DNA from: Eukaryota sp. GEM-RC1
Taxonomy: Eukaryota
NCBI GenBank assembly: GCA_040285855.1
Contig: JAUFOQ010000006.1
Location: forward strand, 1,984,001 to 2,048,000
Direction of reading: 5' to 3'
DNA length: 64,000 nt
A program made the position numbers and the translations under genes. A model generated the notes under the pieces. That model worked only from the letters and a program-made list of their open reading frames with translations, made no database searches and was not told the DNA's origin. Shown in pieces: positions 1 to 64,000 of this stretch (position 1 is the stretch's first letter; every line of letters starts with the position of its first letter).

Positions 1-3000
1 CAATTTTTTTGGAACTGTGATGGCTGATTTTTTCTTGGTTTCCATCTAGATTTGTTAATATCTGCCTTTCTCTCCCCAGCAGTGTATCGGAACACCTTCC
101 ATTTGTCACGCCTTTTCCACTTTACAGGTTGTGGGTTAGTGTCTTGCTTCCAATCATTTAATTGTTTTTTCATTTTTTCAAACTTCCCCTTTTCTTAGAA
201 GATAATGGAGCAATCTTTCTTTTTCTAACTAGGGTAACTGGCTTGGGCTCAATTTCCTTCTCACTTGAGGAATCATCCTTCTCAACTGAGGAATCAATAG
301 ATTGTTCATTGGAAGTAAGATCAATTTCTGTAACACAAGCATTGGCCATTCCATTTTCTATCAATTGTTTTGTTTCATCGACTTCAAATTTCTCACACGC
401 CTCTTCCTCATCAGTTTTTAAACTGGCACAATACATGAGATCATGTTGGTTGGGGTCAACAGCAACAATTCTCTTAGATTTTAAATTCAGCTCTTCAATT
501 TCATCTTCACTTAAGGAATCAATATAACGCTCATTTGAAGCAAGATTAACTGCTATAACATTTTCACGGGCATTTCCATTTTCATCAAGTAAATCTTTCC
601 TCATCATCAACAAACTACAACTTAAACCGTCTGACAAAATTGAAGTGTATTTAAAGTCATAGGATAATGACTCTGGAATAGCCTGAGGTTTTAATACTGA
701 ATTCCAAATAGGTTTCCGTACATCATTATAGTTATAGGGAAGATCCCTACAAAATATTTCGTGAAACCATTGCGTATCGAACCTGATATGATTTGGAATT
801 AAAGATTTAGACAACGGGAAAGGATTGTTTGCTCTTACACCAGGACAATAGTCTTCAATGAGACGGTTCAAATATAATGCATGACTTAAAAAGTATAACG
901 GATCACTCTTTTCGGCATAGTAGATCGTTTTCTCCATCTTTCCTTCAAAATAATTAAACAAATAATTGAAGAATAATATACTCAAGTGAGATTCCGGATT
1001 GGTAAAAACTTGCTTGTCATCAAAATTAATTTTGGAAATTTCACCATTAATGATCAATTCTCTAACTTCATTAATCCTTTGACAGAGTTCTTGTCTTTGG
1101 GTTTTGTCAGTAAGAGCTTCCATTCTCTCTTTCTTTTGAGTAACCAAGTTAAAGACTTGAAAAACATACTCATGAAAGTGTTGGCTCATGTTGTTCTTAT
1201 AATTAGTAATAATTTCGGTTGCAACGTAACCGAGAGGGTTAGACAAATATAGTCCACTTGGAAACACGATCCTATCTCTGCCAACCATTTCACCAGCAGT
1301 TTCTAACAGAGGGATGTAGTTTGATAGGAAGTGTTGGGCGAACTCCTTCTTTGTAGTTGTTGTTTTTGCATTAGAAATGATGTTTTGTAAAGAGTTTTCC
1401 ACAGTTTTAATATGATCAGTACTGTTGAAAAATTGGTGATTTGGAATCCACATCATGGCCAACAGTTGTGACATTGGAGTCAACTTAAAGTAAGCTCCCC
1501 AGTCTGGTAATTCAAATTTGGTAGTTTGAATTTTAGTAAAAAGGTCAAGTTCAGGTTCACCAGTTTCATTTTCATCACCGTCTTCTTCTAAAATATGGCT
1601 GTCTTCTTCTGAAATTTCGGATTCAATTGTACGATCCAAACCAAAATCAGGGTCTGAAGTCACAGGCAATTCAGTTTCTTCTTCTAATTGTTGAGGCACA
1701 AACTCTTCACTTAAAACTTCTGTTTGTTCAGTGTCTGAAACTTCTGTGTCTGTTTCAATTTCTTCTTTAACAGTGAAAATGTAGTCAGATGGAGGTAGTA
1801 TCTCTTTGACCTTGTCGAAAATTAGAGAGTTGTGAAACTTAGTTACGAAAAAATGTTTCAACATATGAGTACCACGAACTCTGACTTGATGAGCTCTCTT
1901 AGCACAAGACTCCATCCAATTGGCTTTAGTCTTTGATACAACATTATCTAATCGTTTCTTCACTGTCTTCAATGGTGGTCGTTCTCTTAATTTTTGCTTC
2001 TTTTCATCGAGAAGATCAAAGAGAATGTATTGTATTAGAAACAACTTATTGATTGAGTTCAATAACAAAGTGGCTCTCGAAGTGTCTCTCGAAGTTTTAG
2101 ATTCCCAAAGTTCATTAAGTTTTGTTAATTCTGCTAACAATCGAATCTCCATTTCAGCTTTGGGTTTTAGTTTTACAGATGGAGCTGTGTTTTGACGTTC
2201 GTCAGTTTTAACCTTAATTTCTTCATCTGACACTAGAGGATTGTCTAAAGAGTGAAATATTCTCTTAAGGAAGATATCTTCATTGTCAAAACTTTCAAAT
2301 GTTCTTGAATGATTATTCATGTCCATCATAATTGTTGTCACGTTTTCCAAAAACCGATCTCTTCTAAAGACATACAACTTCTTCAATACTGAATTCAAGT
2401 CAAGGGAATAAAAAGGACCAATTTCCGTTGGTTTGCACCATCTATGGAACCAAGATGGAAGAGAAGAAATGTAATCATCAATTGTATAATCAATGTCAAT
2501 TTCTAATTTTTTACATCGTGATACTAAGAACGGAAAAGTATCTAAATGCCAATCATAACTTATTAACAAACTGGGCTTGTTAAGATTTAAAAATGTAATG
2601 AAATTTGTTAACATTGATTTTTCAGTTGTAAACGTGTGAACTACACAATTAGGAAGTGAAATTTCTGAAACATTATGGGTGAATAGGTGAGTTTCATTTG
2701 CAAATTTATCATGGGTAAACTGAAGAGAGATTGACACAATTGGGTCTAAATCTGGATCACGTTGAATTTCAAAAGTAGTATCCTGAATTTGTGGAATACC
2801 TTCTGAAGTTGATTCAATCTCTTCGTCTACTTCTGGAACCTGTTTAACTCGAACGACTTTAAGATTCAAGCGTTCAGGATCTGAGATCACACTTTTTACC
2901 TCAATTACACAGAACTTTTGTGGTTGTTTGGGTTCTTGTTCTGGCTGCACTTTAGGTATTGACGGAGGTGACTGAGATGGCATTGTCTGTTTACTTTCAG

Positions 3001-4630
3001 AAACAATTCTTTGTTTTCGTGTTTGAGGAGTAAGACCTGATTGACTGAGTGGATCTCTGGTCCTGATTTTTTTGGAGACACGGATAGGTGTGACAGGAAC
3101 GGGTTTTAATACTGTAGGTGGTAATGGACTGGCTGGACTGATTTTTGATTTTCGTTTTGCAGGAGTAGCACCAGATGGCTCTCTTGGTTTGGACTTACGT
3201 GACTCAGGATGATCAACAGTCGTTACCGTTGGTGGTACAAAATAATTAATAATAGTCTCTCGAACTGAACCAGCATCAATGTCCTTGTTAGCGTTCTGTA
3301 ATTCATCTTTTACAGCTGAAACGTTAACTATATTGCGATAGTTCAAAGCATGTACAAATATTCTGATATACTCAAGGACATAGACTCCTCAGTCATTAGG
3401 TGTTTGTTTCTGGGTAACAGGTACAATGATAGGCCTATACTCAAGCACACTAAGTGCTGAATTCACTGTTGATAAGAACACATTGAAGCTACCAGATGGA
3501 CATTCTACGTTTTCTTCATCTAGATAAAAATCATTAGTGTCGTAATTTGGATCAATGAACAACCACTTTCTGTGTCGACAGTCGATAATCAACAACCCCC
3601 AGTGATAACCTCTGGTACCTGTATTATTAATAACAGGAGCAATGAAATATCGGCAATAACCATTATTTGTCAATTGTTGTATGATAAACTTCGTGAGTAA
3701 AACAACATCAAATTGTTGAGTGGTTGTATCCACAGCATTGTGCAACATTAGAATCGGAGAAATAAAGCATTCAACAGGATAATTATGTAATTTTAAGAGA
3801 TACAGACAATACTGATCAATAACTTCATCATCGATCCACTCATCAGGCAACAAAGTCTGTAAGGCTGATTCAGAAATCGGTCCTGGATTGGACTCAATAT
3901 CACCATCAGCGGTGAGGTCTTCTTTGAATGGATGACGGGAGGAGAAAACTATACGTAATATGAGACACAAAGCAGAAATAGATGATGAAACAACACAAAG
4001 GATCATCTGAGGAATATTACGAGACGAAGTCGGGGGTATGATGGAAAGCACATGAACACAATTCACATAGGCTGTTTCACTAGCGGAAACGAAAATAATT
4101 CTCCAACATCTCATTATACTACCTTGGTCTTGAGGAGCGTGTGAGAGTGAAGTAGTAAGGCGGCAGGCGGAAGAGTAACTCCAACATCTCATTATACTAC
4201 CTTGGTCTTGAGGAGCGTGTGAGAGTGAAGTAGTAAGGCGGCAGGCGGAAGAGTAACTCCAACATCTCATTATACTACCTTGGTCTTGAGGAGCGTGTGA
4301 GAGTGAAGTAGTAAGGCGGCAGGCGGAAGAGTAACTCCAACATCTCATTATACTACCTTGGTCTTGAGGAGCGTGTGAGAGTGAAGTAGTAAGGCGGCAG
4401 GCGGAAGAGTAACTCCAACATCTCATTATACTACCTTGGTCTTGAGGAGCGTGTGAGAGTGAAGTAGTAAGGCGGCAGGCGGAAGAGTAACTCCAACATC
4501 TCATTATACTACCTTGGTCTTGAGGAGCGTGTGAGAGTGAAGTAGTAAGGCGGCAGGCGGAAGAGTAACTCCAACATCTCATTATACTACCTTGGTCTTG
4601 GAGAGCGTGTGAGAGAATTGATGTCGACAT
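1..4630 (-). CDS. Putative polyprotein: repeat leader / 2A / Ulp1-like protease / PolB exonuclease-like domain / Fanzor (TnpB-like); one in-frame TGA, one frameshift, truncated by the window edge
   Basis: ORFs 3389..4654 and 170..3346 are in the same frame, separated only by TGA at 3389-3391 (..QKQTPND*GVYVLEYIRIFVHALNY..). Motifs: DIESNPGP; WIDDEVID..HWGLLIID..FID; DPIVSIS..TEKSMLTNF..PSLLISYD; YVATEIITNYKNN, PFPLSKSLIPNHIRFDT, ILSDGLSCSLL, IVAVDPN. Adding one A to the A-run at ~173-178 restores KKQLNDWK..KWKVFRYTAGER, matching the second Fanzor. First ATG is at 4630. Confidence 0.75.
3878..3928 (-). other. 2A-like ribosomal skipping (StopGo) peptide
   Basis: Translates FKEDLTADGDIESNPG|P, matching the D(V/I)ExNPG-P consensus, after a hydrophobic stretch. 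Confidence 0.8.
4101..4616. repeat. 78-bp tandem repeat, ~6.6 copies (26-aa unit SHAPQDQGSIMRCWSYSSACRLTTSL on the minus strand)
   Basis: Unit starts ctccaacatc at 4101, 4179, 4257, 4335, 4413, 4491 and 4569. Confidence 0.97.
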
Positions 4631-10000: not shown

Positions 10001-10849
10001 ACCTCCACCAAGTTGGAAAGCGGCAATCGGTAGATCAGACGTGAATTGACTACCTTCTCGTGTACCAGATGATTTATTTAAAAATTGGGCAAGAGCTCTG
10101 CAAGACATTCGGGTTGGTTGCGACACAATAACATTTGAGAGAAAAGCCATTGCAAAAATGATTGGGGAAATTGTGGATTTTCCTGAGCCAGTTGAGCCAG
10201 TAATTACGTATGGAAAATCCGATGGCTGTTCTTTATAGCAGGAAATGCAATGGTTAAGTAATGTCACAAAAGACTCTTGACCATCTGCAGTTGATACAAA
10301 AGATAGCTTGTGTTTAGTCTTAGCTTTGTAAAGAATGTTCATCATGCAAGATAAATGAACAATACTGATAAGGTTATGGTTCTTGACATTTTCTATCCAG
10401 TGCGGAAAAATTAAATCGCAAACCTTTGAAAGAAAGATATCGCCCAATTCGGTAAACTCTTTCTTCAGAACGTTGTATTCAGAGGGTGGAGTTGGATGAA
10501 ATATTTCGGGGAAACTACTTTTCGAAGTTACATGACATACTTACTTCTGCCATACGATCTTCTTCCATAAGAGATTCTTCCATACGATCTTCTTCCATAA
10601 GAGATGAAACATGGTAGAACGAAAACCACTTTGTACAATACTGCCTTGGTCTTGAGGAGCAGAGTACAAAGAAGCGACGACAGCGGAGGAAACAGAGTGT
10701 AAAGAACTTTGGACAATACTGCCTTGGTCTTGAGGAGCAGAGTCCGCAGTTGTTACGATGAAAGGATTCATGTAAACGAAAGAATTGTATCTACATGAAG
10801 ATATCTCACCACACTTCTTTCTGATAGTTCTTTCCCACAGACTTTTCAC
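7093..10849 (-). CDS. DEAH/RHA-family helicase-like protein (frameshift at ~9330; probable 27-30 nt intron near 10515-10544)
   Basis: GSTGSGKST (Walker A), VSQPTRMS, IIHEFHERS (degenerate DExH), SAT, VFLPG, STNIAESSLTID, QRAGRVGR. ORF 10541..10849 is in frame with 9320..10447, and the intervening TAA lies within GTAAGT...AG. Confidence 0.75.
10635..10743. repeat. Two copies of a 31-bp motif, 78 bp apart, related to the 4101-4616 repeat
   Basis: acaatactgccttggtcttgaggagcagagt at ~10635 and ~10713; its core differs from atactaccttggtcttgaggagc in the 78-bp array by one base. Confidence 0.9.
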
Positions 10850-12473: not shown

Positions 12474-12660
12474 GTTACACATCTTGTATTACAGATCTTG
12501 TAAAACATATATTGTATTACTGATCTTGTGTTACAGATCTTGTATTACAAATGTTGTGTTACAAATGTTGTGTTACACATCTTGTATTACACATCTTGTA
12601 TTACGAATCTTGTGTTACAAATCTTGTAAAACACATTTTGTGTTACAAAAAGCACTTGTA
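12474..12660. repeat. 14-bp tandem array (TTACACATCTTGTA-like), ~13 copies
   Basis: atcttg and variants at 14-bp period: 12481, 12495, 12523, 12537, 12579, 12593, 12607, 12621. Confidence 0.92.
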
Positions 12661-12760
12661 GTTTTGTAAATTCAAATATAAAATAGTCAACAATTCAAAA
12701 GATCGAAGGTGAAAAAAATATCAATGTCAACAATTCATTACACATACGACACTTTCATTT

Positions 12761-12920
12761 CAAATGTTGTCATTACAAATGTTATATCACCAAATGTTGT
12801 CATTACAAATGTTGTCATTACAAATGTTATATCACCAAATGTTGTCATTACAAATGTTATATCACCAAATGTTATCATTACAAATATTGTCATTACAAAT
12901 GTTATCATTACAAATATTGT
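12761..12920. repeat. 15-bp tandem array (CAAATGTTGTCATTA / CAAATGTTATATCAC), ~10.5 copies
   Basis: Direct reading of the 15-bp period; shares the TTACAnATnTTGT core with the 14-bp array. Confidence 0.92.
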
Positions 12921-23585: not shown

Positions 23586-23705
23586 AACAACATTAGCTTT
23601 CAGAATCGATTCAAGAAGTAGGAATTTTGTAGGCCAAAAGATTTCGACATTCCTCAAATACTGAATGAACTAACAGCCACGTACAATCTGTATTGATTAA
23701 TCGGG

Positions 23706-24350
23706 TTACGTTTGCGCTTTACAAAAGCTTTCATAAATACCTAAGTTACATTTACACGAATTGGGGTTAATAAGTGAAACATCATCAGGAAATCGATTAA
23801 CAAATTCAAAAATGAAAGGTATTCCGCCCCTAAAAAAGCAGATTTGCAATGAATTGACGATTTGGTAAAACCAAGTCACCAAAATGAGCAGAAGTCTAAA
23901 GTGACGTTGAATCAACTTCTAACAGTGAAGCAAAAAATGATTAATCCTCAACTCGTTAAAAGATCTACAAAAATTCAGATCGATTGAAGGAGCTGTAGAT
24001 CTCAAAAGATAAGTCATTTTTCCGGAGTAGCAAATTTTTAAAATTAAAAACTTAATACTAGTCAGTTTTTCAATATCATTTGAAGAAATTGTGTTGAGTT
24101 CTGAACCACTTCTTTCCAAATAATTAGATAATTCTTGAGAAATTTTAGGAACATTCCCAAGCCAACGTCCTAGAAAACGAAAAGCGTCTTCAATATAATT
24201 GATAAATGGAATCTGAACTCCATTAATAAATACTAGTAATTCTATATCACAGTTTGATGTACAAACCGTTCTGACATCGAGTGATAATACTTTTAGCAAA
24301 TTCAAATATTGTATAAACTTTTTAATCCTTTTTAGCGTGATGCATGCCAC
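23706..24350 (-). pseudogene. Non-LTR retrotransposon RT/thumb remnant
   Basis: FRFLGRWLG..LILKICY..TYLLRSTAP pattern; SFNELRIN is shared with the copy at ~43240. Confidence 0.65.
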
Positions 24351-24791
24351 AATGAAATTTTGGACTGCAATTCATCCCACACTCGTATGGTCGTGTGGCT
24401 GATGGCCTGTCTGGCGGGTTTTTGAAGTGATATTATGAGGTACGTGTCAACCCAACAGGAATTATACTTTTACTTTGATTCAGTATCTCAGTATGTTATT
24501 TATTGAAAAATTCGAGTTTTTTGTTGAAAATGTCATCAATGTACTTAATCAATTGTGTTGTTCTAACCAAATTACAACATCTTCAGATCTTTGCTACAGT
24601 ACTATATTATTTGAATGAATGATATCGACAGATTGGATTACATTTGTATGGATGTAGTTGTAACTTCTGAAGATAGACATATCACAGACAATTAACCAAC
24701 TTTATGGCAGAAAATACCATTGGTCGTAGAGCATTATGGCCTTTTATCATATTTAAGCTTTTGTTTGGGTTTCAGCTGATTTCCTAATTCA

Positions 24792-26367
24792 ATGAAGACC
24801 TCTGTTGATAACACGGATCTACACTCCTTAAACCAATCTAGTCTTCCTTCAGGCTTTACTGCCAGTGACTATCTTCACTTGACGACAAAACATCGAAATG
24901 TGCTCAATTCCAGATCACAACAACGTCCTCCTTCTCAGGCTAGCTCTCAAAGAAGTATCACATCAGCTCACTCTAAACAGGATGAACATGAAACTGCTTT
25001 AAGAAAACAAACCATTCAACATGAGGTAGATCGTCTAAGGCAAAGCATGTCTTCTATTCGATCTATGCGTACTAACAACACCCCTCCTTTATCCAGTGTA
25101 AGCCTTAACGCATTTTTCTTCTTCTGTTAGACCACCACCTTCTCCCAGGCTAGCTGCTCTTAATGCATCTGAAGCTGCTCAAAACGCAAAGTCTAACATT
25201 CACTACTCTAACCCCCCAGCTCCTCACTCAATCACCTTTTCAAAGAAAGAAGATCCATCTTCTGCTAATCCTCATAATGATCTTCATGCTGAATCTCTAT
25301 CGTCTTCCTCCCATGATGTCTACTCTAGTCGTACCCCATCACCATCTCCTATCTCATCCAATGCTCCTCCACCTCTCTCTCCACAGCAATTCCCAATGCA
25401 ATCTTCTACTATACCCAAACCGTCTGAGGTCCAACCTTTACCACCTCCACCTCAGAACTTTGCTTTCACTAACCTCTTCAAACGAAAGCCATCAGCTGCT
25501 CCATCAGCTCGTTTCACCAATGCTCTCGCTTCCAGAAAGGGTTCTAGAAGTGCTCCCCTCTTTAATGCTTCAAGCCGTGCTTCTCAACGAAAGCTAGTTT
25601 TTGACAAGAGTGGATCAATGACTCCCACCTCACTAGAATCTACTTCAAAAACTCCTTTATTATCAGATTCTTCAGCAACTAGAGGATTTAATATGGTAAC
25701 TTCTATATTAAGAAACAAACCTTCAGCAGATGGACCAGCTTACACGAAATCAAAATTTAAAAATTTAAAAACTTTGTCGAAAACAGTAATTCCTCAAGAA
25801 TCAGGTAGACGAAGAACTGTCACTGAAGCCAGGGAGTGGCTCTCCGAATCTGTTAAAGACTATGAATCGAGGGTGTTTCAGTCACTGTCGTCTCACGTAC
25901 ACGCTGGAGCTAGGAAAGCTGTTGACCAGGCACGACTTTCCAGGACGACTGAAGGAAATTTGTTGACTTCTGGAGACAGTGACTCTGATTTTGTAGATTC
26001 AGATACAGATAATTTAACTTTGGTACAAACTGTGCCATTAGTGTCATTTCCTAAAGAAGACGAAGCCCCCAAGTATCAAGAAGATCATCCACGTGATCGT
26101 GGTGACGTCATCAACGTTAATAAGGGTCAATCTCAAAAGTTTTTGACTGCTTCAATGGTTGCTTCCCGAAATTACGGTTATACTCTACCACAATCAACTC
26201 TTGTCGATGACGAATCTGATGTTGAAATCGATAATCAGGTCAATAATCATAATCAAGATGAATCAGAAGATCTTGTTGTAAGTGATGGTGAGAAAGTTGC
26301 ATTGTCGGGGTCACACGTGTTCGATTTCCTAATGAAACAACGACTGGACTCTAGTGATAGTGATTAG
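24792..26367 (+). CDS. Hypothetical Ser/Pro-rich protein (intron 25098-25130, probable frameshift)
   Basis: Consecutive ORFs joined by a 33-nt GTAAGC..TAG intron. Confidence 0.55.
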
Positions 26368-43199: not shown

Positions 43200-45015
43200 T
43201 TCTAAAGTATGCCTTGATCGTTGTACAGATCAATTTGATTCATTTAACGAGTTGAGGATTAATTCTGTTGTATCATTGATAAAAGTTGATTCAACGTTAC
43301 TTAGAAGTCACATGTTTACTTCTGCTCGGTTTGGTTGTATTGTTTTTTCCAAATCGTCAATTCTTTGCTTTTTATAGATGGCGGAAAAAGTTTCATTTTT
43401 GATGATATCACTTATTAATAATAAACATTAGGAAATACGTTATTAACCCCAATTCATGTAAATTTTTATATGACTTAAACGAAACGCTGGTAAAACTACT
43501 TTTTGAAGTTTGGTTTCAATGTGTCCCAGAATCTGTGTCTGAAATACCTGCAAGATGTTTGACTAATCTTCAGTTTTGTCTGAAAAAATTGCAACAAATA
43601 CTAACATAGATATTTCAAAGCATGGATTATAATGTTCGACTTGGCATGGCCAAAGAAAATTGGCTTTGGACTGCTTTTGCAAATTTCTTAATGAATGTTT
43701 CAAATAGCTCTGCTTCATGTATGATTACTCAAATCCCTCAAGTTCACGGTCGTTTTCTTGATGATAACTCTTGGTCATTAAACATCCGTTTACAGTCATT
43801 TATTTGGCCTGATAACCTTCCACACAATTTGAAATGCTAAGGTGGGCAATCTGTAACACCTACACATATATTGAATTGTAACCGTTATATTTCTTTTAAA
43901 AGTGAGGTTCATGATTCTGTAAGGGATCAACTATATTTTATGTGTAAATCTTAGAGTTGCACAGGACGTATTTTACGTACACGTCCGTCTTGAGACGTAA
44001 CTTCAGATAAAGAGACGTTAGTGTCTGTTCAATATTGGGGTTATAATTATCAGCAAATCCCGTCACTTATCGACATCTACAGTGCCACTATTATGTACTA
44101 AAGTGAATTGACCAGGAATTTATTGTTTCTTTAGTGTCATAAATTATATTTGTTTGCCCTTTTCGTGTATATCACATCAAATCATCTAAGAAGAGTGGCC
44201 AAAACAAATTACTGAAGTCAATTACTGGATTCAGAAACTCTTCTGTCCTCACAATGAACCACATCATCTTCACCATCACCCACTTGGTCTTGATCAATGG
44301 TTCCTGTCATCAGGATTCACTTCAAAAGCAATGTTATAGTGACCAATTTATGATCATGATGAAAATGGAGAGATGATGAGGGGAGGAGGAAAAATGTTGC
44401 GTCTACCGAATTTCACGTATTGGAACGAATTAGACGTGGACGCGTATTAATTCGTATTTTGACGTGCCAAGGTGACGTATTGTGCAATCCTAGTAAATCT
44501 TATGGAATAGTCTCCTTTTTAGAACCAGTTCTGGCTGGTTTGTTTGATGATACAGATGTTGAAAAATAGTTTGGAAATAGCCGTGGTGATGTCATATTTC
44601 CTGGTCTCGATGGATCATTCATTATTGCTGATGTTATGTCTATCGACGTTTGTAATGGTTCCAACAATAAACTTGATAAATTTAATGCTAAAAACACTCT
44701 GTTGATTGGTGAAAAATGTAAAATGGAACAGTATTGTGCTAAACTGAAATTATTGAATTCGGTTTCACACTCTCATTACTTGTTGTACCCTTTTGTATTT
44801 TCATTGTACGGTTCTTAAGGTGAATCTGCAACATCATTACTTGAAATCTTTGTGAAGATTGTATAAGAAAAACATCTAGGACTTTTGATCTGGTATAGAA
44901 GGTATGGGGACTGCTGTAACTAGCGCTTTGTTATCTCTTGGCAGACAATATGAGGATAAGGTAGGTGAGAATTTCCAGATAGGCAATCTGGACTTTGAGG
45001 ATATTGATTATTAGA
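43200..45015 (+). mobile_element. Degraded non-LTR retrotransposon 3' half (CCHC knuckle + restriction-like endonuclease), interrupted by a MITE
   Basis: SFNELRIN; HILNC..HDSVRDQLYFMCKS|YGIVSFLEPVL is restored when 43952-44500 is removed; SRGDVIFPG..IIADV..YPFVFSLYG. Confidence 0.7.
43952..44492. mobile_element. hAT-type MITE (541 bp)
   Basis: Imperfect TIRs TAGAGTTGCACA / TGTGCAATCCTA; 8-bp TSD GTAAATCT at 43944-43951 and 44493-44500; ACGT-rich subterminal motifs. Confidence 0.85.
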
Positions 45016-49192: not shown

Positions 49193-50376
49193 TTAGTTGT
49201 CACAAGATGTGTAATACAAGATTTGTAACACAAGATGTGTAATACAAGATGTGTAATACAAGATGTGTAATACAAGATGTGTTTTACAAGATGTGTAATA
49301 CAAGATGAAACTATCAAAATTACCTATATTGTCCAATCTTTTCAAAATTAAATATAATTCAAATAAAACACACATACCAGTCTTTTCATCATTTTTCAAA
49401 TACTCTTTCAAAACATGAAACAATTCCACAAGCACATCACTACAATAACGTTCATCAACATTATCCTTATTAATCACATCGGTAATGTAACAGTTCCTTA
49501 TTGTTTTCACTTCCATACTTGATGCAGATTCAGATCCAATACAATCTAGTACATTATCGACAATTGACTGAATTCCAATAGTTAAGTCCACTCTCAATTG
49601 TTTGTAAGTAGCAACACGATTATACTCCAAAATAGGAGACAATGATATTGTTTCATAAGTCACATTGTCAGTTTGTTGATATTCACATATGGAATCACAT
49701 TTTTCATTTTCAAAGCTTTCAGTCTGAACTTCCTTGAGACAAAATCGTTTTTCATCATCAATAAGAGGAAACACTTGGGAACTTTTTCTTTCTATACCAG
49801 CACTGACATTCTTATTTAATAATAAATTCTTCGTTGGTAAAGGGGTTTTCTTCAAACGGGGAAGCGATGGTAGAGTAATGTTGCCTCGTGGTAATTGAGG
49901 AAGTTTAGACTTATTGACACAAATCTCAGCAGAATTTTTGTTAAAAATTGAGTCACAATTAATAAATTTGGGAGGAATATTAGTTTCATCTTCTTCAAGT
50001 TCATCATTTACAACAAAATCATCTAAACTTGTTGAAATTGTATCATTATCAGATTCATCACCAGAATCGGATCCTGATAGTACAGCTTCTGTTTCAAATA
50101 AATTTGATTTTTCGAAATGGTTTAAACGATTTTTTCCAAGTCAATAATTTTTTCATCAACATTATCAACAATAACTTCATCAACACAATGAACATCTTCA
50201 GGAACAACAACATCATCCGTAATTGGTTCACTCGATTCTGCACAAAAGTTTGCAAACAATGAATTAAAATGATTGAAATCTCGTTGAAGACAATGTTGAT
50301 TTCCCAAAACATACAAATCAATAGTTGATGGCTTAACAGGATGAAAAGTTGAATAATACCATTGATACAATTCCAA
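49193..50376 (-). CDS. Hypothetical protein antisense to Fanzor (probably one frameshifted gene)
   Basis: ORFs 50122..50376 and 49193..49855; ends within the 14-bp array. Confidence 0.4.
49201..49307. repeat. 14-bp tandem array, ~8 copies; reverse complement of the 12474-12660 array
   Basis: caagat at 49203, 49217, 49231, 49245, 49259, 49273, 49287 and 49301. Confidence 0.93.
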
Positions 50377-50401: not shown

Positions 50402-53350
50402 ATGCTTAAAATCTTTAAACTCCTCCAAGACCGTCTCAGTGTTATCCGAAATCAAAGAGCAACAGTAAGGGGTTCTAATTTTTGAAACATCTCCTTATTT
50501 GTGAGTTTGAAACACGTGGATGTGAATTAAATTTGATGAATCGTCATTACTTTCGGCAATATCTCTTAGAATCTTCTGTTTCGGAATCAAAAGAACGAGA
50601 TTTAATGTACGAACATGATTTTTTGGAGAAACGACTTCGTGAAATGGAGTTAATGTATGAACATGATCTTTTTGAGAAACGACTTCGTGAAATGGAGTTA
50701 ATGTATGAACATGATTTTGATTCGTATCCATCAGAACTTTCTGATTTGTTGGCATTAAATGAACGTAAATTAATGAAGAGCCATGATACAATGCCTGATT
50801 CTGATGATGCATCTGTTTCTGATCCGTTAGAACCTTCTGATTTACCCCTCTACACTAAGTTTTCAGTAGTCTTACCAGATTTGAAAAAACTGCTTAAACA
50901 CGATTCTATTAGACAAGTATTGAGACGGATGTATGTGAAGAAATCAACTGGTTCTTCAATTACAGAGTCAGAACTAGAAATGTCAAGAGCAGAGGCTCAA
51001 AAAGTGATTGACGATTTCCAAAAATCTTCAAGACTAGAAATGATCGAAAAAGAAAAAATTGCATTTCACTACTTGAACAACTTTTCTCCACTTCTACAAC
51101 AGTTGTCTGATGAAATTGGAACAAATCAAATTTCATTTCCTGATTCTACGTCAATGTCTCCCATATTTCATTACACTGCCAAACAAATTTCTACAAATTA
51201 TGCCAACAATATGGTCAAAAATTTTCATGATTATGTATTCAGATTCTTTAATCTGGTAACAAGAAAGAAAGTAAGACTTGAACAGATAAATGATCAAGTT
51301 GATAAGAAAGAATTGATTTCGAAATTGAATTCAGTCAGAGATTCGATTATCGATGGAAATTTTGATGACATTCCAATTGCAGATCACGAGATTTTCCCTA
51401 ATCCACGTGAAGAACTAACGTTGAGGTTTTTTTGCGTATTTGAAATTTTCATTGTTTCCAATGTTTTCAAAAAGAACATTTACTATTTACAGAAAGCAAA
51501 GCCGACAGAGTTAATTTCTCATGCTCTGTACATCAACCGAACTATACAATCTTTGTGTTTGGTTGATGGAAAACCAATCAGTGTAAACAACCCTTTTCCA
51601 ATGACGAAGACATTGATTCCTCAGCATATTCGTTTGGACACAGGTTGGATGAATGATAGATTTGTTCATATACGTGGCAAAAATGCAGATGAAATAAGAA
51701 AAAAGGTCTTTGATCAGGTCCTTACTGACAAAGCTGTGGCACCAACAAAATCATTTGTCTTTAGATATTCTTCAATTCTGACAGATGGAATTTCTTGTTG
51801 TTTGGTTTTAATGAGGAAAGATTTGGTTGATGAAGATGGAAATACTTTCAAAGATTTTACTGCTAAATCTCTCGGAACTGCGGAAAGATACATTCACTCT
51901 TTATCAAATGAGAATATTCACGAATTACAATTGAAAGAAAAAAAGAATTGTCGGTGTCGATCCCAATGAATATGATTTAATGTATTGTGTTTCAGAAAAG
52001 ACAGTCGATGAGCTTAAAGATGAAGATATTTCAGAAAATAATCCACTCAAAAAACGATTACCCTCAGAAATCAGAAGTAAGAAAAGAGGAGGAATTAAGA
52101 AAAGAAAGAAACAATTACAAGATTGGAAAAATTCGAATAATGATGTAAAATCAAAGAAAAAGGCTAAGCACAAATGGAAAAAGTTTAATTATACAGCTGG
52201 AGAAAGAGCTTACGATAGGAAATCTAAAAAATATCGTAAATCTGAAAATAGAAAACTGAAAGAATTTTCTATCGAATCACCAGACGAAACTGTCACTGAA
52301 AGACAACTTAAAGATTTTTTGGTTCTCCACTCTGATAGAATTCTTGTAACAGGAAGAGATGTCACTAACCAATTCTCCAATGCTGTATCAAACGGGGAAA
52401 GAAAGTCGTGTTTCAGTGACACATTTGGAACATATATTAAAGAAGCTGAAAGATATAACGTATATTTGAGTTCTTTCTACGAAGATGACTGGTTTAGAAA
52501 GAGGAAATTCCAAATTTATTCTAATAACCAACGTTCGGAGAAAAACATGCTGGAACGCTTCAATTTAACATATGGACCTCCAGAAGATGTCGTCATTGGG
52601 TATGGGGATTGGAGCTCAAAAGGTAAAACAAGAAAGGGCAAAACCTCTACTGTTAGAGGAGTGGAAATCCGTAAAATGTTAAGAAGATATGGATACCAAA
52701 TATTTCTTGTTGATGAATACAGAACAAGCAAGTGTTGTTCCAAATGTGCTAAGGAAAAATCAACTTTCGTAGAATGTGAAAATGTTTCGGAACTAAAGGT
52801 TCTTGGTCCCAAAGGTAAGAGACAGCTAAGAAGGAAGAAGAGAAAGTTAAGAAGAGAAATTTTGCTCAAAAACAAACAAGATCCTCTAAACCAGCGGGAT
52901 TTTTGGAAGCAGAGTGGGAGGTGAAGCAGAAGTCATTGGAAGAAGAAGCTAAATCCACACCCTGGGGACTGGTAAAGTGCTCAGATGCTGATTGTGGTAC
53001 TTATTGGAATAGAGACCTAAATTCTGCCATTAATATCTATTCCATCATTGAAGCAACGATCAATGGTCAAGGTAGGCCATCCGCTCTCGAGAGATCTAAA
53101 ACTCAAACAACAGATCTCAAGAGTGGTAAGGATACTTTGGCGAGAGACCAGAAGAAGAAGAAGACTGCGACCAAAAAGAAGAAAAACTTCAACAGGAAAG
53201 AACAAAACTTCGACAGGAAAGAAGAATACATGTGGAAATTGTGGCCAAGAAGGTCATAACAAAAGGTCATGCCAGAATCCACCAAAAGAAATGAGTTCGC
53301 CTAAAAGAAGAAGCGTAAAGTCAGTCAAGAAGAAGAAGGTCTCTCGTTAA
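50402..53350 (+). CDS. Fanzor1-type (TnpB-derived) RNA-guided nuclease with C-terminal CCHC knuckle; four homopolymer frameshifts
   Basis: VRGSNF(L)KH; YTAKQISTNYANN; PFPMTKTLIPQHIRLDT; ILTDGISC; IVGVDPN (RuvC-I, shifted frame at ~51950); IGYGDWS; VDEYRTSKCCSKC; CSDADCGTYWNRDLNSAINI (RuvC-III); CGNCGQEGHNKRSC. Confidence 0.85.
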
Positions 53351-53445: not shown

Positions 53446-53504
53446 AGTTGTGTACTTTGGGAATACTTGTATCCATTTGAGTTGAGAACCACAGTGGATA
53501 TCAT

Positions 53505-54264
53505 CAGGAGTTGGAAAAATTGCATTGCCAATTAATTGTTCTCAGTTTTTCAGAGACAATGAATTATTGCAATTATCACATGTGCTACAATTAATTGGGC
53601 AATTAATTGGTCTGTGATAAATTGACCATTTGCACTTAAAAGAAAGTTCAAAAGTTTGTTCTTTATGATAACAAAACTAGTTTTTCAGTGTACAATCAGT
53701 GTTCATTAACGTCTTGCAGGATATTGTGCGCTTAATACCGGAAAATTACCTATTGAGTTCGTTTTCTACAAAGTTGAACGGTCTGAGGCCTTTAATAACC
53801 AACTTCATTCATTTAAAGTATTCTGAGTATTTGTCTTCAATTACAAATGTGCCAAGAGTGCTCATTTGCCTTTCATCAAGTCATTGTGCTCCTGTTGAAA
53901 ATTAACATGCTTTGTTCTCAGATGGTTGGAAAGATTTGTTCACACGTTACCTTTCAATATCATTGCTTTGCACTTACAAGTGTAGTGTTGCCCTTTGACG
54001 TGAGCACTTTTTCCAGAATCGGACGGAGAAAAGAAAGTCAAGCACAGAGTACGATTGTATGTAGGTAAAGGAAGGAAAGTGTTTTATTGTACATCTGCAT
54101 TCTGTTATCTGTTTGTAATTTCTATTCATTTCGTGCATTTGAAACCCCCGTGATAATTGCAATTAATTGCCCAATTAATTGTCGTCCTATTTTGGGGCCA
54201 ATTACTTATTGCAATTAATTAATTGGCAATAATTTAATTGGCAATGCAATTTTTCCAACTCCTG
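53505..54264. mobile_element. hAT-type MITE (760 bp)
   Basis: 31-bp perfect TIR CAGGAGTTGGAAAAATTGCATTGCCAATTAA; 8-bp TSD GATATCAT at 53497-53504 and 54265-54272; subterminal CAATTAATTG motifs. Confidence 0.92.
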
Positions 54265-55013
54265 GATATCATATCAAAGTTAGTAATTCTTCTACTGTGG
54301 AATTCTTTTGGTGTGAATAATCCTGGAATTTGGACCTTTTAATTTGGAGACTTCCCCCTTTTCTGTTTTCCCCCCTTTTTGGAGGATCAGTTTCTGTCTC
54401 TTCTCCGTGTCTTTTAGTCTGTGTCTGTCACCTGAGATGTCGTGTTCGGTATAGTGTATATATCAGGGAAACTTGAACTGATTTCTTTCATACAGATTTC
54501 CATCTTCTATGAGCTAGGGCGTCGTTTCACATCTATGTTATCGCTTTGATACTTAATGAGTACATATTGGTTCTACATCTTCGATATCTTGAGGAAGTTC
54601 CTTCTCTTTCAACAACAACACTCTCTGCTGCAACATTACATTGACAACACTTATCAACCGGTGAATGTTCTGGTAAGTAGAGAAGGTACAATTCTTATGT
54701 GAGACATCTCAAATCCACGTCAGTCATAGCTTTTATTTCAAAAAACAATAAAGATCCATCAGCATCTGTTTACACGGTATGGAACAAACCCTAGATTTAG
54801 TGCTGACCTCGATTTAGTGCCGGTCCAAACAGTGGCACTATAGATCTTCAATAAACTATCCCTTTTATTCATTCGTTACTTAATGGAAGTTGTTGTTTCA
54901 ACACTACAAAATAGCATCTAACAGTGTATTAGTGACATCTGACTGATAACCGGAAACAGAACGTCTTGATTGATAATCTTAAATCTAGATTTGCCTGCGT
55001 TTTCTGTTTCTTT

Positions 55014-56102
55014 ATGGGGTATACTTATGACATGCTCTTCGATGCCAACATCGACATTCGTCAACTGTGCTGTAACGCCAGTGAAGACACAATTGTCCGA
55101 GCTGTTTGGACCTACTATTGGTTGGGTAAAACACAAGCTCAAATTGCTGAATACTATTGTGTGTCTCAGCCTACAATTAGCCGTTGGATAGCTTCAGCTT
55201 TTGAAAACAAGAAACCAAATGAGGAAGAACTTGATCCTCGTCTTAAACTTGATGCTGCTGATTTGTCCTTCATTCAAAACACGCTACATCTTCATCCGCT
55301 TCTGTATCTTAGAGAAATTGCATCCCTTGTTCACAAAGAGCGTGGCAAAAAAGTATCTGTATCCACTATTCAGAGAGCCCTGGTCAGAATGGGTTACACT
55401 CATAAACGTTGCAGAGCACTTGTTCGCAGAGCCAAGTTAGAACTAATTTTATCATTTGAAAACAGAATAAACCACCGATGTATTGTACTTATTAACCAAC
55501 TGGTTTTCATTGATGAAGTTTCATTTAGAGCATCAGACTTTCAAAGGTCTTCAGGTTGGTCACTGAAGGGTAACGAGATTGTTGTTGAACAAGTTGATCT
55601 CGCTTATCACAACATTTCTGCATGTGTAGCAATTACACAACACGGCTTTTTAAGTGCATTTATCCAATATGGGCATTTCTCTCGATTGCAATTTGTGAAG
55701 TTTATTCAAAATCTCTTATTTCATGGATATTTGGGAACAAGTGGTTTTGCTCGAAGCTGTATTATTTTGGACGGTTGTAAAATCCATGTAGATTTGAATA
55801 TTTCTCAGGCCCTGAGAAAAGCAGGAGTTGAGTATTTTGTGTTGCCTCCCTATTGTCCCGAAAGCAACCCTACTGAGGTATTTTTCAAAGTGTTTAAGTC
55901 AAAAGTACTAGACTTTTTTGAACATAACCCACGAGGAAACGAACTAGTAGATTTGTTTCGAGTTCTTGATACAGATATGCGGTTCTCTTGTCACAAAATA
56001 TTTGCACACTGTGGGTGGTCAAATGAAACCTTCTTCAAGTCAACTTACAGGACCAATTCAATGCTTGCTGCCAATTTAGCAGAAAAGACCACTAATAAAT
56101 AA
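55014..56102 (+). CDS. IS630/Tc1/mariner-superfamily DDE transposase
   Basis: HTH VSQPTISRW; LYLREIA..VSVSTIQRAL; catalytic VFIDE, IILDG, LPPYCPESNPTE. TIRs not found. Confidence 0.9.
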   Translation: MGYTYDMLFDANIDIRQLCCNASEDTIVRAVWTYYWLGKTQAQIAEYYCVSQPTISRWIASAFENKKPNEEELDPRLKLDAADLSFIQNTLHLHPLLYLREIASLVHKERGKKVSVSTIQRALVRMGYTHKRCRALVRRAKLELILSFENRINHRCIVLINQLVFIDEVSFRASDFQRSSGWSLKGNEIVVEQVDLAYHNISACVAITQHGFLSAFIQYGHFSRLQFVKFIQNLLFHGYLGTSGFARSCIILDGCKIHVDLNISQALRKAGVEYFVLPPYCPESNPTEVFFKVFKSKVLDFFEHNPRGNELVDLFRVLDTDMRFSCHKIFAHCGWSNETFFKSTYRTNSMLAANLAEKTTNK

Positions 56103-63539: not shown

Positions 63540-64000
63540 ATGTTTATTATTCTTCTTTTTCTTCTTTTACTGTTTCGAGTTTTAAAAACACCATCAGGTG
63601 TTCAGGATGCGTTCACAGGAGTTTATCCTAAGGACGTATTTCCTTTTTTCTTCTTTTTTCTTCTTTCACTGTTTCGAGTTTTAAAAACACCATCAGGTGT
63701 TCAGAATCCTTCTTTCGTCTTTTCTTATAACGTCGTTATTTTTACAGTAGTTTCTGTATCAACAATAAATAGCATTTGTCCATACAAAGAGGATTTGACT
63801 TTGTGTGGAGATGTTGAAAATAATCCAGGGCCTGATGACAGAAAGTCTAAGCCAGGAATTTATGTTGTTGTTGAAGATAGTAAATTTTGGCGAAAATTTG
63901 AGTCTCCAAAGTCTTGGAAGCAATACATAGAAAATCTAGAAAAACGACCCGTTTACAAAAAGTGTTATTCCGATGCTGAAGTTGAAGCTTTTGCCAAAGC
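63540..64000 (+). CDS. 5' part of an ORF absent from the ORF track: duplicated hydrophobic leader, 2A motif, RNase H1 hybrid-binding (Cauli_VI)-like domain; runs off the window
   Basis: ATG at 63540, open to the end: MFIILLFLLLLFRVLKTPSGVQ..LFRVLKTPSGVQ..CPYKEDLTLCGDVENNPG|PDDRKSKPGIYVVV..VYKKCYSDAEVEAFAK. Confidence 0.75.
   Translation, partial: MFIILLFLLLLFRVLKTPSGVQDAFTGVYPKDVFPFFFFFLLSLFRVLKTPSGVQNPSFVFSYNVVIFTVVSVSTINSICPYKEDLTLCGDVENNPGPDDRKSKPGIYVVVEDSKFWRKFESPKSWKQYIENLEKRPVYKKCYSDAEVEAFAK

Follow-up and report, generated by a model that had tools for sequence, protein, structure and literature searches.

The window analysed here, a stretch of 64,000 nt, carries at its right-hand edge the 5′ part of an open reading frame, hereafter ORF-X, in which a tandem-repeat leader is followed by a 2A/StopGo motif and a small predicted domain. 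Near the left-hand edge, on the opposite strand, lies a partner ORF, in which a repeat leader and a 2A head an Ulp1 domain, a PolB-type exonuclease and a Fanzor-like region. The features are given below in window coordinates, together with the observation that defines each.

63540..64000, plus strand: 5′ part of ORF-X (full product P0001, 235 aa), shorter than its homologues
63547..63707, plus strand: repeat leader of ORF-X, 99-nt period, ∼1.6 units; of the frames of the unit, that of the 2A alone is stop-free
63607..63684, plus strand: 25-codon out-of-frame ORF opened by an ATG inside the repeat; its peptide starts P0002, where it is in frame with the P0002 2A
63780..63833, plus strand: 2A/StopGo motif, canonical core with a DLTxxG-type upstream hexapeptide, found by core search and profile
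63855..63998, plus strand: small domain, predicted beta-beta-alpha-beta-alpha, weakly like the C-terminal half of the RNase H1 hybrid-binding domain
4101..4615, minus strand: leader of the partner ORF, 6.6 copies of a 78-nt unit; only the 2A frame is open; seven unit motifs, four in P0024
3878..3931, minus strand: 2A motif of the partner ORF, found by core search and profile
3200..3880, minus strand: Ulp1 (Peptidase_C48) domain, with a TGA at 3389-3391 where the copy P0024 has a cysteine
173..3388, minus strand: PolB-type exonuclease and N-terminal half of a Fanzor-like protein, ending at RuvC-I; its cluster has seven members at ≥90%

The frame of ORF-X is opened by an ATG at 63540, directly preceded by TAA, has no stop ahead of the 2A motif and stays open for 153 codons to the window edge. 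A search with residues 81-153, in which 2 of 25 candidates matched (P0001 and P0002), recovered its full product as P0001. Since P0001 is 235 aa long, the frame closes 82 codons past the window, with an expected end at ∼64247 if the gene is unspliced. The sequence-only reading had supposed that ORF-X heads a different protein, perhaps a retroelement or another Fanzor polyprotein, and this finds no support: the product stops at 235 aa, which is at odds with a long polyprotein, and no RT, RNase H or Fanzor domain was seen in any copy. None of 84 candidates of >413 aa matched post-2A residues 98-233. Pfam revealed no APE or RT domain in P0001, P0002, P0033 or P0034, the four copies described below, and the RuvC/zinc-finger signature of Fanzor is absent from all four, being found only in the partner gene type and in a further copy at 50-53 kb. 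Rfam gave no match at 63-64 kb of the window.

The residues beyond a conserved PFW motif number 19 in P0001 and 44, 70 and 127 in the other copies (127 in P0034), and an E-L-L motif of the other three falls exactly at the P0001 stop. Thus, with its homologues longer, the window copy has been cut short, either by mutation or by assembly error. The same reading had named an early end of the frame, together with a 2A neither conserved nor active, as evidence against itself; ORF-X does end soon after 64000, but its 2A is kept in other copies.

The 2A motif and the repeat leader

The core DVENNPGP was confirmed at 63810-63833 on the plus strand, and the sole other core in the six frames of the window lies at 3878-3901 on the minus strand. 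By chance, 1.6 × 10−4 cores are expected per window, and 2 × 10−10 with the upstream DLTxxG; ORF-X, its 99-bp repeat and its 2A motif are real, far beyond chance. Searched against the 2575 fragments of the window, a profile of 100 viral 2As found two sites with E-values of 7 × 10−10 and 6 × 10−9, with a large gap to the next match (0.64); these scores lean high, since a DLT..G pattern derived from this very motif had served to gather most of the viral 2As. The core fits the definition (D/G/C/N)(V/I)ExNPGP of 2A/StopGo (PMC12846837), and the hexapeptide DLTLCG resembles the DLTxDG group (motif 4), of which a tested example is described in a passage of that paper as skipping almost 100%. The core is kept in P0002, P0023 and P0024, and P0033 has NRGP in place of NPGP.

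The likeness to the 2A at 3.9 kb, which had been pointed out before, holds up, with 13/18 aa and 35/54 nt common to both; 8 of the 13 shared residues use different codons. Due to the fact that 2As from viral contigs match each of the two at up to 15/18 aa, common descent of the window 2As is not established. No close analogue of them occurs among the tested peptides in supplement 3 of PMC13405545, and both peptides are absent from two 2A catalogues. Canonical 2A motifs in retrotransposons are often weak or inactive, according to a section of PMC3708506; judged from its motif, the 2A discussed here is probably active in the intact element. Within the viral material, one ORF at 3001-4139 of a 39-kb viral contig (L078) has three identical 2A motifs, and since 39 kb is long for an RNA virus, this contig may belong to a DNA virus that employs 2A.

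Two 53-nt copies, 96% identical and 99 nt apart (63556-63608 and 63655-63707), make up the repetition ahead of the 2A in ORF-X. The duplicated 99-bp leader of the sequence-only reading is therefore a real repeat, but one of ∼1.6 units and not two full leaders. In P0002 the leader is repeat DNA read in three successive frames and yet open to its 2A: the first 18 residues equal the out-of-frame repeat ORF of the window, the next 33 the in-frame unit, and the next 17 the third frame. Accordingly, the unit must be one base off 99 there, and a second change ahead of the 2A must compensate for it. In P0033 the NRGP 2A follows six repeats of another 33-aa unit, of which at most 7 of 33 residues match the ORF-X unit in any frame. 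The number of units also varies between copies, with seven unit motifs in P0023 against four in P0024. Each of the three unit lengths is divisible by three in one copy or more. Where the DNA of the unit is available, as it is for two of them, no frame but that of the 2A is free of stops; when these units are shuffled, a given frame stays open in 20% and 35% of cases.

Five proteins, P0001/P0002, P0023/P0024 and P0033, have the layout of repeat leader and 2A, and between them they use three distinct leader peptides. The idea of a reusable cassette stands in so far as the layout recurs; one copied module is unsupported, as no DNA similarity was found between the two window leaders and their 2As are no closer to each other than to viral ones. 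Because P0002 reads its repeat in three frames yet stays open, what is conserved is not the sequence of the leader peptide, and we infer from these sequences that the leader must stay open while its peptide sequence matters little, a comparison in which the frame changes sit in T-runs, error-prone in long-read assembly, and in which only open-frame copies get called as proteins. A 2A would allow just this, an open frame with an unimportant leader peptide. The assemblies that carry the relatives' label were made from Nanopore reads with Illumina correction, as given in part of PMC11316075, and the frame changes in T- and A-runs, as well as the early stop, could be assembly errors.

Two further properties of the leader were observed. 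The leader RNA at 63540-63780 (+) folds better than its shuffled versions (z = −3.3, 1 of 200 as good), with one hairpin per unit. ORF-X and P0002 differ at 4/107 residues in leader and 2A and at 16/136 after the 2A (P = 0.03, noticed after the fact).

Copies of ORF-X and the domain behind the 2A

P0002, of 271 aa, is 83% identical to ORF-X and is labelled Eukaryota sp. GEM-RC1. A profile search of 1.84 billion representatives gave four matches, P0001, P0032, P0033 and P0034; P0032 was rejected as a relative, since it matches only through its four 2As. P0033 and P0034 are distant copies under the same species label, and P0033 aligns across the post-2A region at 32-37% identity (about 32%). Four copies were thus found, and no relative of the post-2A protein was detected outside them. 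Searches of metagenomes, viral contigs and prokaryote genomes with P0001 or A1 gave no related locus, and two metagenome matches of alignment A3 (L227 and L228) were rejected because they overlap a bacterial gene on the opposite strand. In phages and plasmids the sole tblastn match is a sigma factor (E = 9), NCBIfam and PHROGs gave nothing better than E = 0.01, PDB sequence searches gave no match, ESM Atlas look-ups were practically empty, and among 1463 ORFs of viral loci that bear a 2A, there was none with a likeness to the post-2A part (best E = 0.26). When ten proteins of the window were looked up for cluster membership, eight were found: all five host proteins were single members, and the three element proteins had 2, 2 and 7 members. 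The host genes of the window include DJ-1 and HD. Taken together, ORF-X is very probably a mobile multi-copy gene.

As to the protein itself, Pfam showed no domain at its cut-off in P0001 or P0002. The tail of P0001 may bear some likeness to the N-termini of CRE-type retrotransposons. The match of the post-2A part to the RNA:DNA hybrid-binding (Cauli_VI) domain, proposed from the sequence alone, was not borne out by Pfam, neither for the 56-aa part nor for the full proteins. The post-2A domain lies below the 21-bit Pfam cut-off of PF01693, which all 50 control domains pass; these controls were aligned from 118 domains picked by motif in 119 viral loci, of which 72 remained after removal of near-duplicates, and their profile recovers 1QHK and 3BSU.

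Direct comparison with the control profiles gave the following picture. The 72-domain profile scored 7.8 bits against the 56-aa stretch (6 of 2000 shuffles as good), 5.1 bits against P0002 (36/2000) and 4.6 bits against P0033 (21/2000), the family having been chosen after the fact in each case. Ranked by the hybrid-binding profile, whole ORF-X came 10th of the 2575 window fragments (E = 6.6). HHalign returned probabilities of 10.9% and 30.5% over 29-30 of 48 columns, in the C-terminal half only; the N-terminal YAV..G...G half was not aligned, and as the controls were picked by that very motif, the whole-domain test is the stricter for it. An AlphaFold single-sequence model of the domain (pLDDT 73.6) has beta-beta-alpha-beta-alpha, the order in the RNase H1 hybrid-binding domain; the full-length P0001 model is unusable (pLDDT 36.7) and has the same order of secondary structure. 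Structure searches gave no clear family match (Foldseek none at E ≤ 0.001, VIA best Z 3.9), and 1QHK and 3BSU are absent among the Foldseek and VIA matches listed, with the fold still compatible. The binding residues of human RNase H1 are given as W43, K59 and K60 in a passage of PMC6846478; in P0001 the aligned residues, once a gap of two residues is allowed, are W126, K140 and K141, and P0033 is without them in alignment A3. The domain is like the RNase H1 hybrid-binding domain (PF01693 Cauli_VI; 1QHK, 3BSU) in size, in predicted order and in a W...YKK...AE.EAF pattern of the C-terminal half, and unlike it in the unaligned N-terminal half, in scores far under the cut-off and in the loss of W and KK from P0033. 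A true hybrid-binding fold is therefore possible but doubtful.

The partner ORF and the origin of ORF-X

The TGA at 3389-3391 of the partner ORF sits exactly at the catalytic cysteine of Ulp1. Since P0024 has the cysteine there, this is a nonsense change in the window copy. Recoding of TGA was rejected: TGA closes 6 of the 19 ORFs checked, four of them apparent host genes. P0024 is a copy of the ORF at 3.9 kb in which the Ulp1 domain is intact (Peptidase_C48, E = 1.4 × 10−7) and which runs on into the next frame, and therefore leader, 2A, Ulp1, exonuclease and Fanzor form one ORF in intact copies. The seven cluster members of the Fanzor ORF lie on at least five contigs, so that they are dispersed near-identical copies. 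Its Fanzor part contains the RuvC-I motif and is 36-43% identical to the copy at 50.5-53.3 kb, which shows the D...TS-C4-RD signature described in part of PMC3627910. The Fanzor frame is interrupted at 170-180 (−), in an A-run that has an overlapping ATGA, and P0027 and P0029 are interrupted at the same place; the break may be inherited, may stem from an assembly error made repeatedly, or may be a programmed frameshift or restart.

The two gene types meet at another locus, in the genome of the window or in that of a close relative, where P0024 (locus tag 012876) adjoins P0002 (012877), as shown by their consecutive tags and by contigs of equal listed length. In the window, ORF-X and the Fanzor ORF are 59 kb apart with single-copy host genes between. 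Adjacency at one locus together with such a distance at the other makes a shared element or a shared history likely. The upstream flanks of the two window genes have no terminal sequence in common and no transposase of the ORF-X/Fanzor element was seen, in a window from which both elements run off. That ORF-X and the Fanzor ORF belong to the same element family seems to us slightly better supported than the contrary.

Several other elements and remnants are present in the window. A second Fanzor-like gene at 50479-53259 (+) spans three frames with the full signature; an in-frame repeat of 48 nt lies close to its start, and it lacks a 2A. An intact-looking DDE_3 (Tc1/IS630-type) transposase lies 1.7 kb from it at 54936-56102 (+), with a 98% copy elsewhere, and between the two is an inverted pair (53497-53609 and 54160-54270, 75% over 114 nt) that is possibly a small non-autonomous element. 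Remnants related to the DDE_3 transposase occur at 13.2 and 48.9 kb, and the same 14-nt tandem repeat stands in opposite orientation beside Tc1-like remnants at 12475-12920 and 49202-49307, possibly as subterminal repeats of one element. Two decayed non-LTR remnants, at 23600-24900 (−) and 43200-44900 (+), are 73% alike over 172 nt and are related to the RT proteins P0003-P0015; the latter carries what we take to be zinc-knuckle and endonuclease-like motifs. At 10620-10760 (−), two copies of a 78-nt-period repeat, with 22/23 nt as in the Fanzor-gene leader, stand before a broken DExH helicase chain (10540 to 5145), with no 2A after them.

In the reading that we favour, with a probability of about 0.58, ORF-X represents a multi-copy gene in truncated form. 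This gene likely belongs to a mobile element that is linked to the Ulp1-exonuclease-Fanzor gene, and its 2A would free a small basic protein from the repeat leader. Other origins can be proposed for the same locus. ORF-X would be the 5′ end of a non-LTR retrotransposon, either an ORF1-like gene or the N-terminus of a broken ORF, if its 5′ repeats, N-terminal 2A and hybrid-binding domain were followed by an RT behind a frameshift. N-terminal 2As are indeed established in APE-type elements, some of them behind a tract of 90-115 aa without known function before APE (sections of PMC3708506), and are also reported in ORF1p-like proteins in part of PMC13405545. Moreover, the four copies of ORF-X end at different points, like decayed long ORFs, and RT elements are abundant among the relatives' proteins, with RT and endonuclease remnants at 23.9 and 43-45 kb of the window. 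However, 0 of 13 RT relatives, all of which start inside or just before the RT, has a 2A or any likeness to the post-2A part, the longest copy (P0034) extends 127 residues past the conserved motif without a Pfam match, and the one known neighbour is the Ulp1-Fanzor gene, which makes this origin unlikely.

It is quite improbable that ORF-X, the partner ORF and the broken helicase chain at 5.1-10.8 kb were all left behind by one larger element, either an endogenous DNA virus or something virus-like. The repeat common to the Fanzor-gene leader and the helicase frames would fit it, as would the viral origin of the best 2A matches and the occurrence of Fanzor1 in large DNA viruses (part of PMC3627910), but no relative of P0001 is found in viral contigs or phages, the ORFs scanned contain no capsid or polymerase domain, and no 2A precedes the helicase. 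A small host gene family, in which hydrophobic leader and 2A either form a signal sequence controlled by skipping or dampen protein output, and next to which the Fanzor gene inserted by chance, we consider very improbable. The first 12 residues of ORF-X are strongly hydrophobic (Kyte-Doolittle 3.6), 2A-like signal sequences have been described (part of PMC4981915), and many eukaryotic 2A-like peptides lower output (part of PMC13405545); the hydrophobic stretch, however, stems from TTC/T runs for which P0002 uses other frames, the ends of the copies are ragged, and the same layout heads a clear mobile-element ORF.

Proposed use of the 2A and comparison with known systems

In the favoured reading, a ribosome would start at whichever upstream AUG is in frame, read through the repeats, skip the Gly-Pro bond and continue with P-D-D-R-K. 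The released protein would be small and basic with a constant N-terminus, released from a leader whose length and reading frame vary. The peptide made from this leader could be dispensed with, and its repeat DNA may serve as promoter or 5′ region. Both genes would be part of one element family, in which the released protein may bind nucleic acid as an accessory factor. An extended version of this scheme, which we hold to be unlikely, would see a metamonad family of DNA elements with at least two genes, each of variable repeat leader, active 2A and payload, namely the Ulp1-exonuclease-Fanzor polyprotein and a diverged RNA:DNA-hybrid-binding protein that helps the RNA-guided nuclease at the R-loop; 2A would shield both proteins from the unstable leader, and these would be the first Fanzor-bearing DNA transposons to employ StopGo.

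The copy at 63.5 kb is itself broken; the wider point is that, in an anaerobic protist lineage, a 2A stands at the head both of a Fanzor polyprotein and of a second gene linked to it. 2A recoding is on record from RNA viruses, from retrotransposons and from a small number of cellular gene families, as stated in passages of PMC12846837, PMC3708506 and PMC13405545. As the same layout heads the Fanzor polyprotein, DNA transposons likely make use of 2A peptides too. Our literature search found no report of 2A with Fanzor or, by title, of Fanzor with Ulp1 or of 2A-like peptides with DNA transposons. If skipping is true, the range of elements that use 2A becomes wider, and a new purpose is suggested for the 2A, the buffering of the payload against repeat expansion and frame drift in the leader. 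Skipping would also set the true N-terminus of these Fanzor proteins, and the case would offer a direct test of 2A on metamonad ribosomes.

Compared with the 2A/StopGo sequences of RNA viruses (DLTxDG group, motif 4, part of PMC12846837), the ORF-X motif has the same core, D at p12 and G at p11, and up to 15/18 residues in common. It differs in being chromosomal in a protist and in following a repeat leader rather than standing between two functional proteins; its hexapeptide has L-C for x-D, and N replaces the usual S at p15. The 2As of APE-type non-LTR elements (L1Tc, Ingi, CR1, L2 and Rex1; part of PMC3708506) likewise follow a short leader close to the start of an ORF that belongs to a mobile element, and they too have decayed variants among the copies. 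In contrast to these, ORF-X copies are without APE and RT, the partner is Ulp1 with exonuclease and Fanzor, and the leader is an in-frame repeat of variable unit number. With the Fanzor1-carrying DNA transposons of PMC3627910, in whose text a word search found no Ulp1, protease or exonuclease, the partner ORF shares RuvC-I, a multi-copy state and its likeness to the copy at 50.5-53.3 kb with the full signature, whereas its Fanzor part is fused behind a leader, a 2A, Ulp1 and a PolB-type exonuclease.
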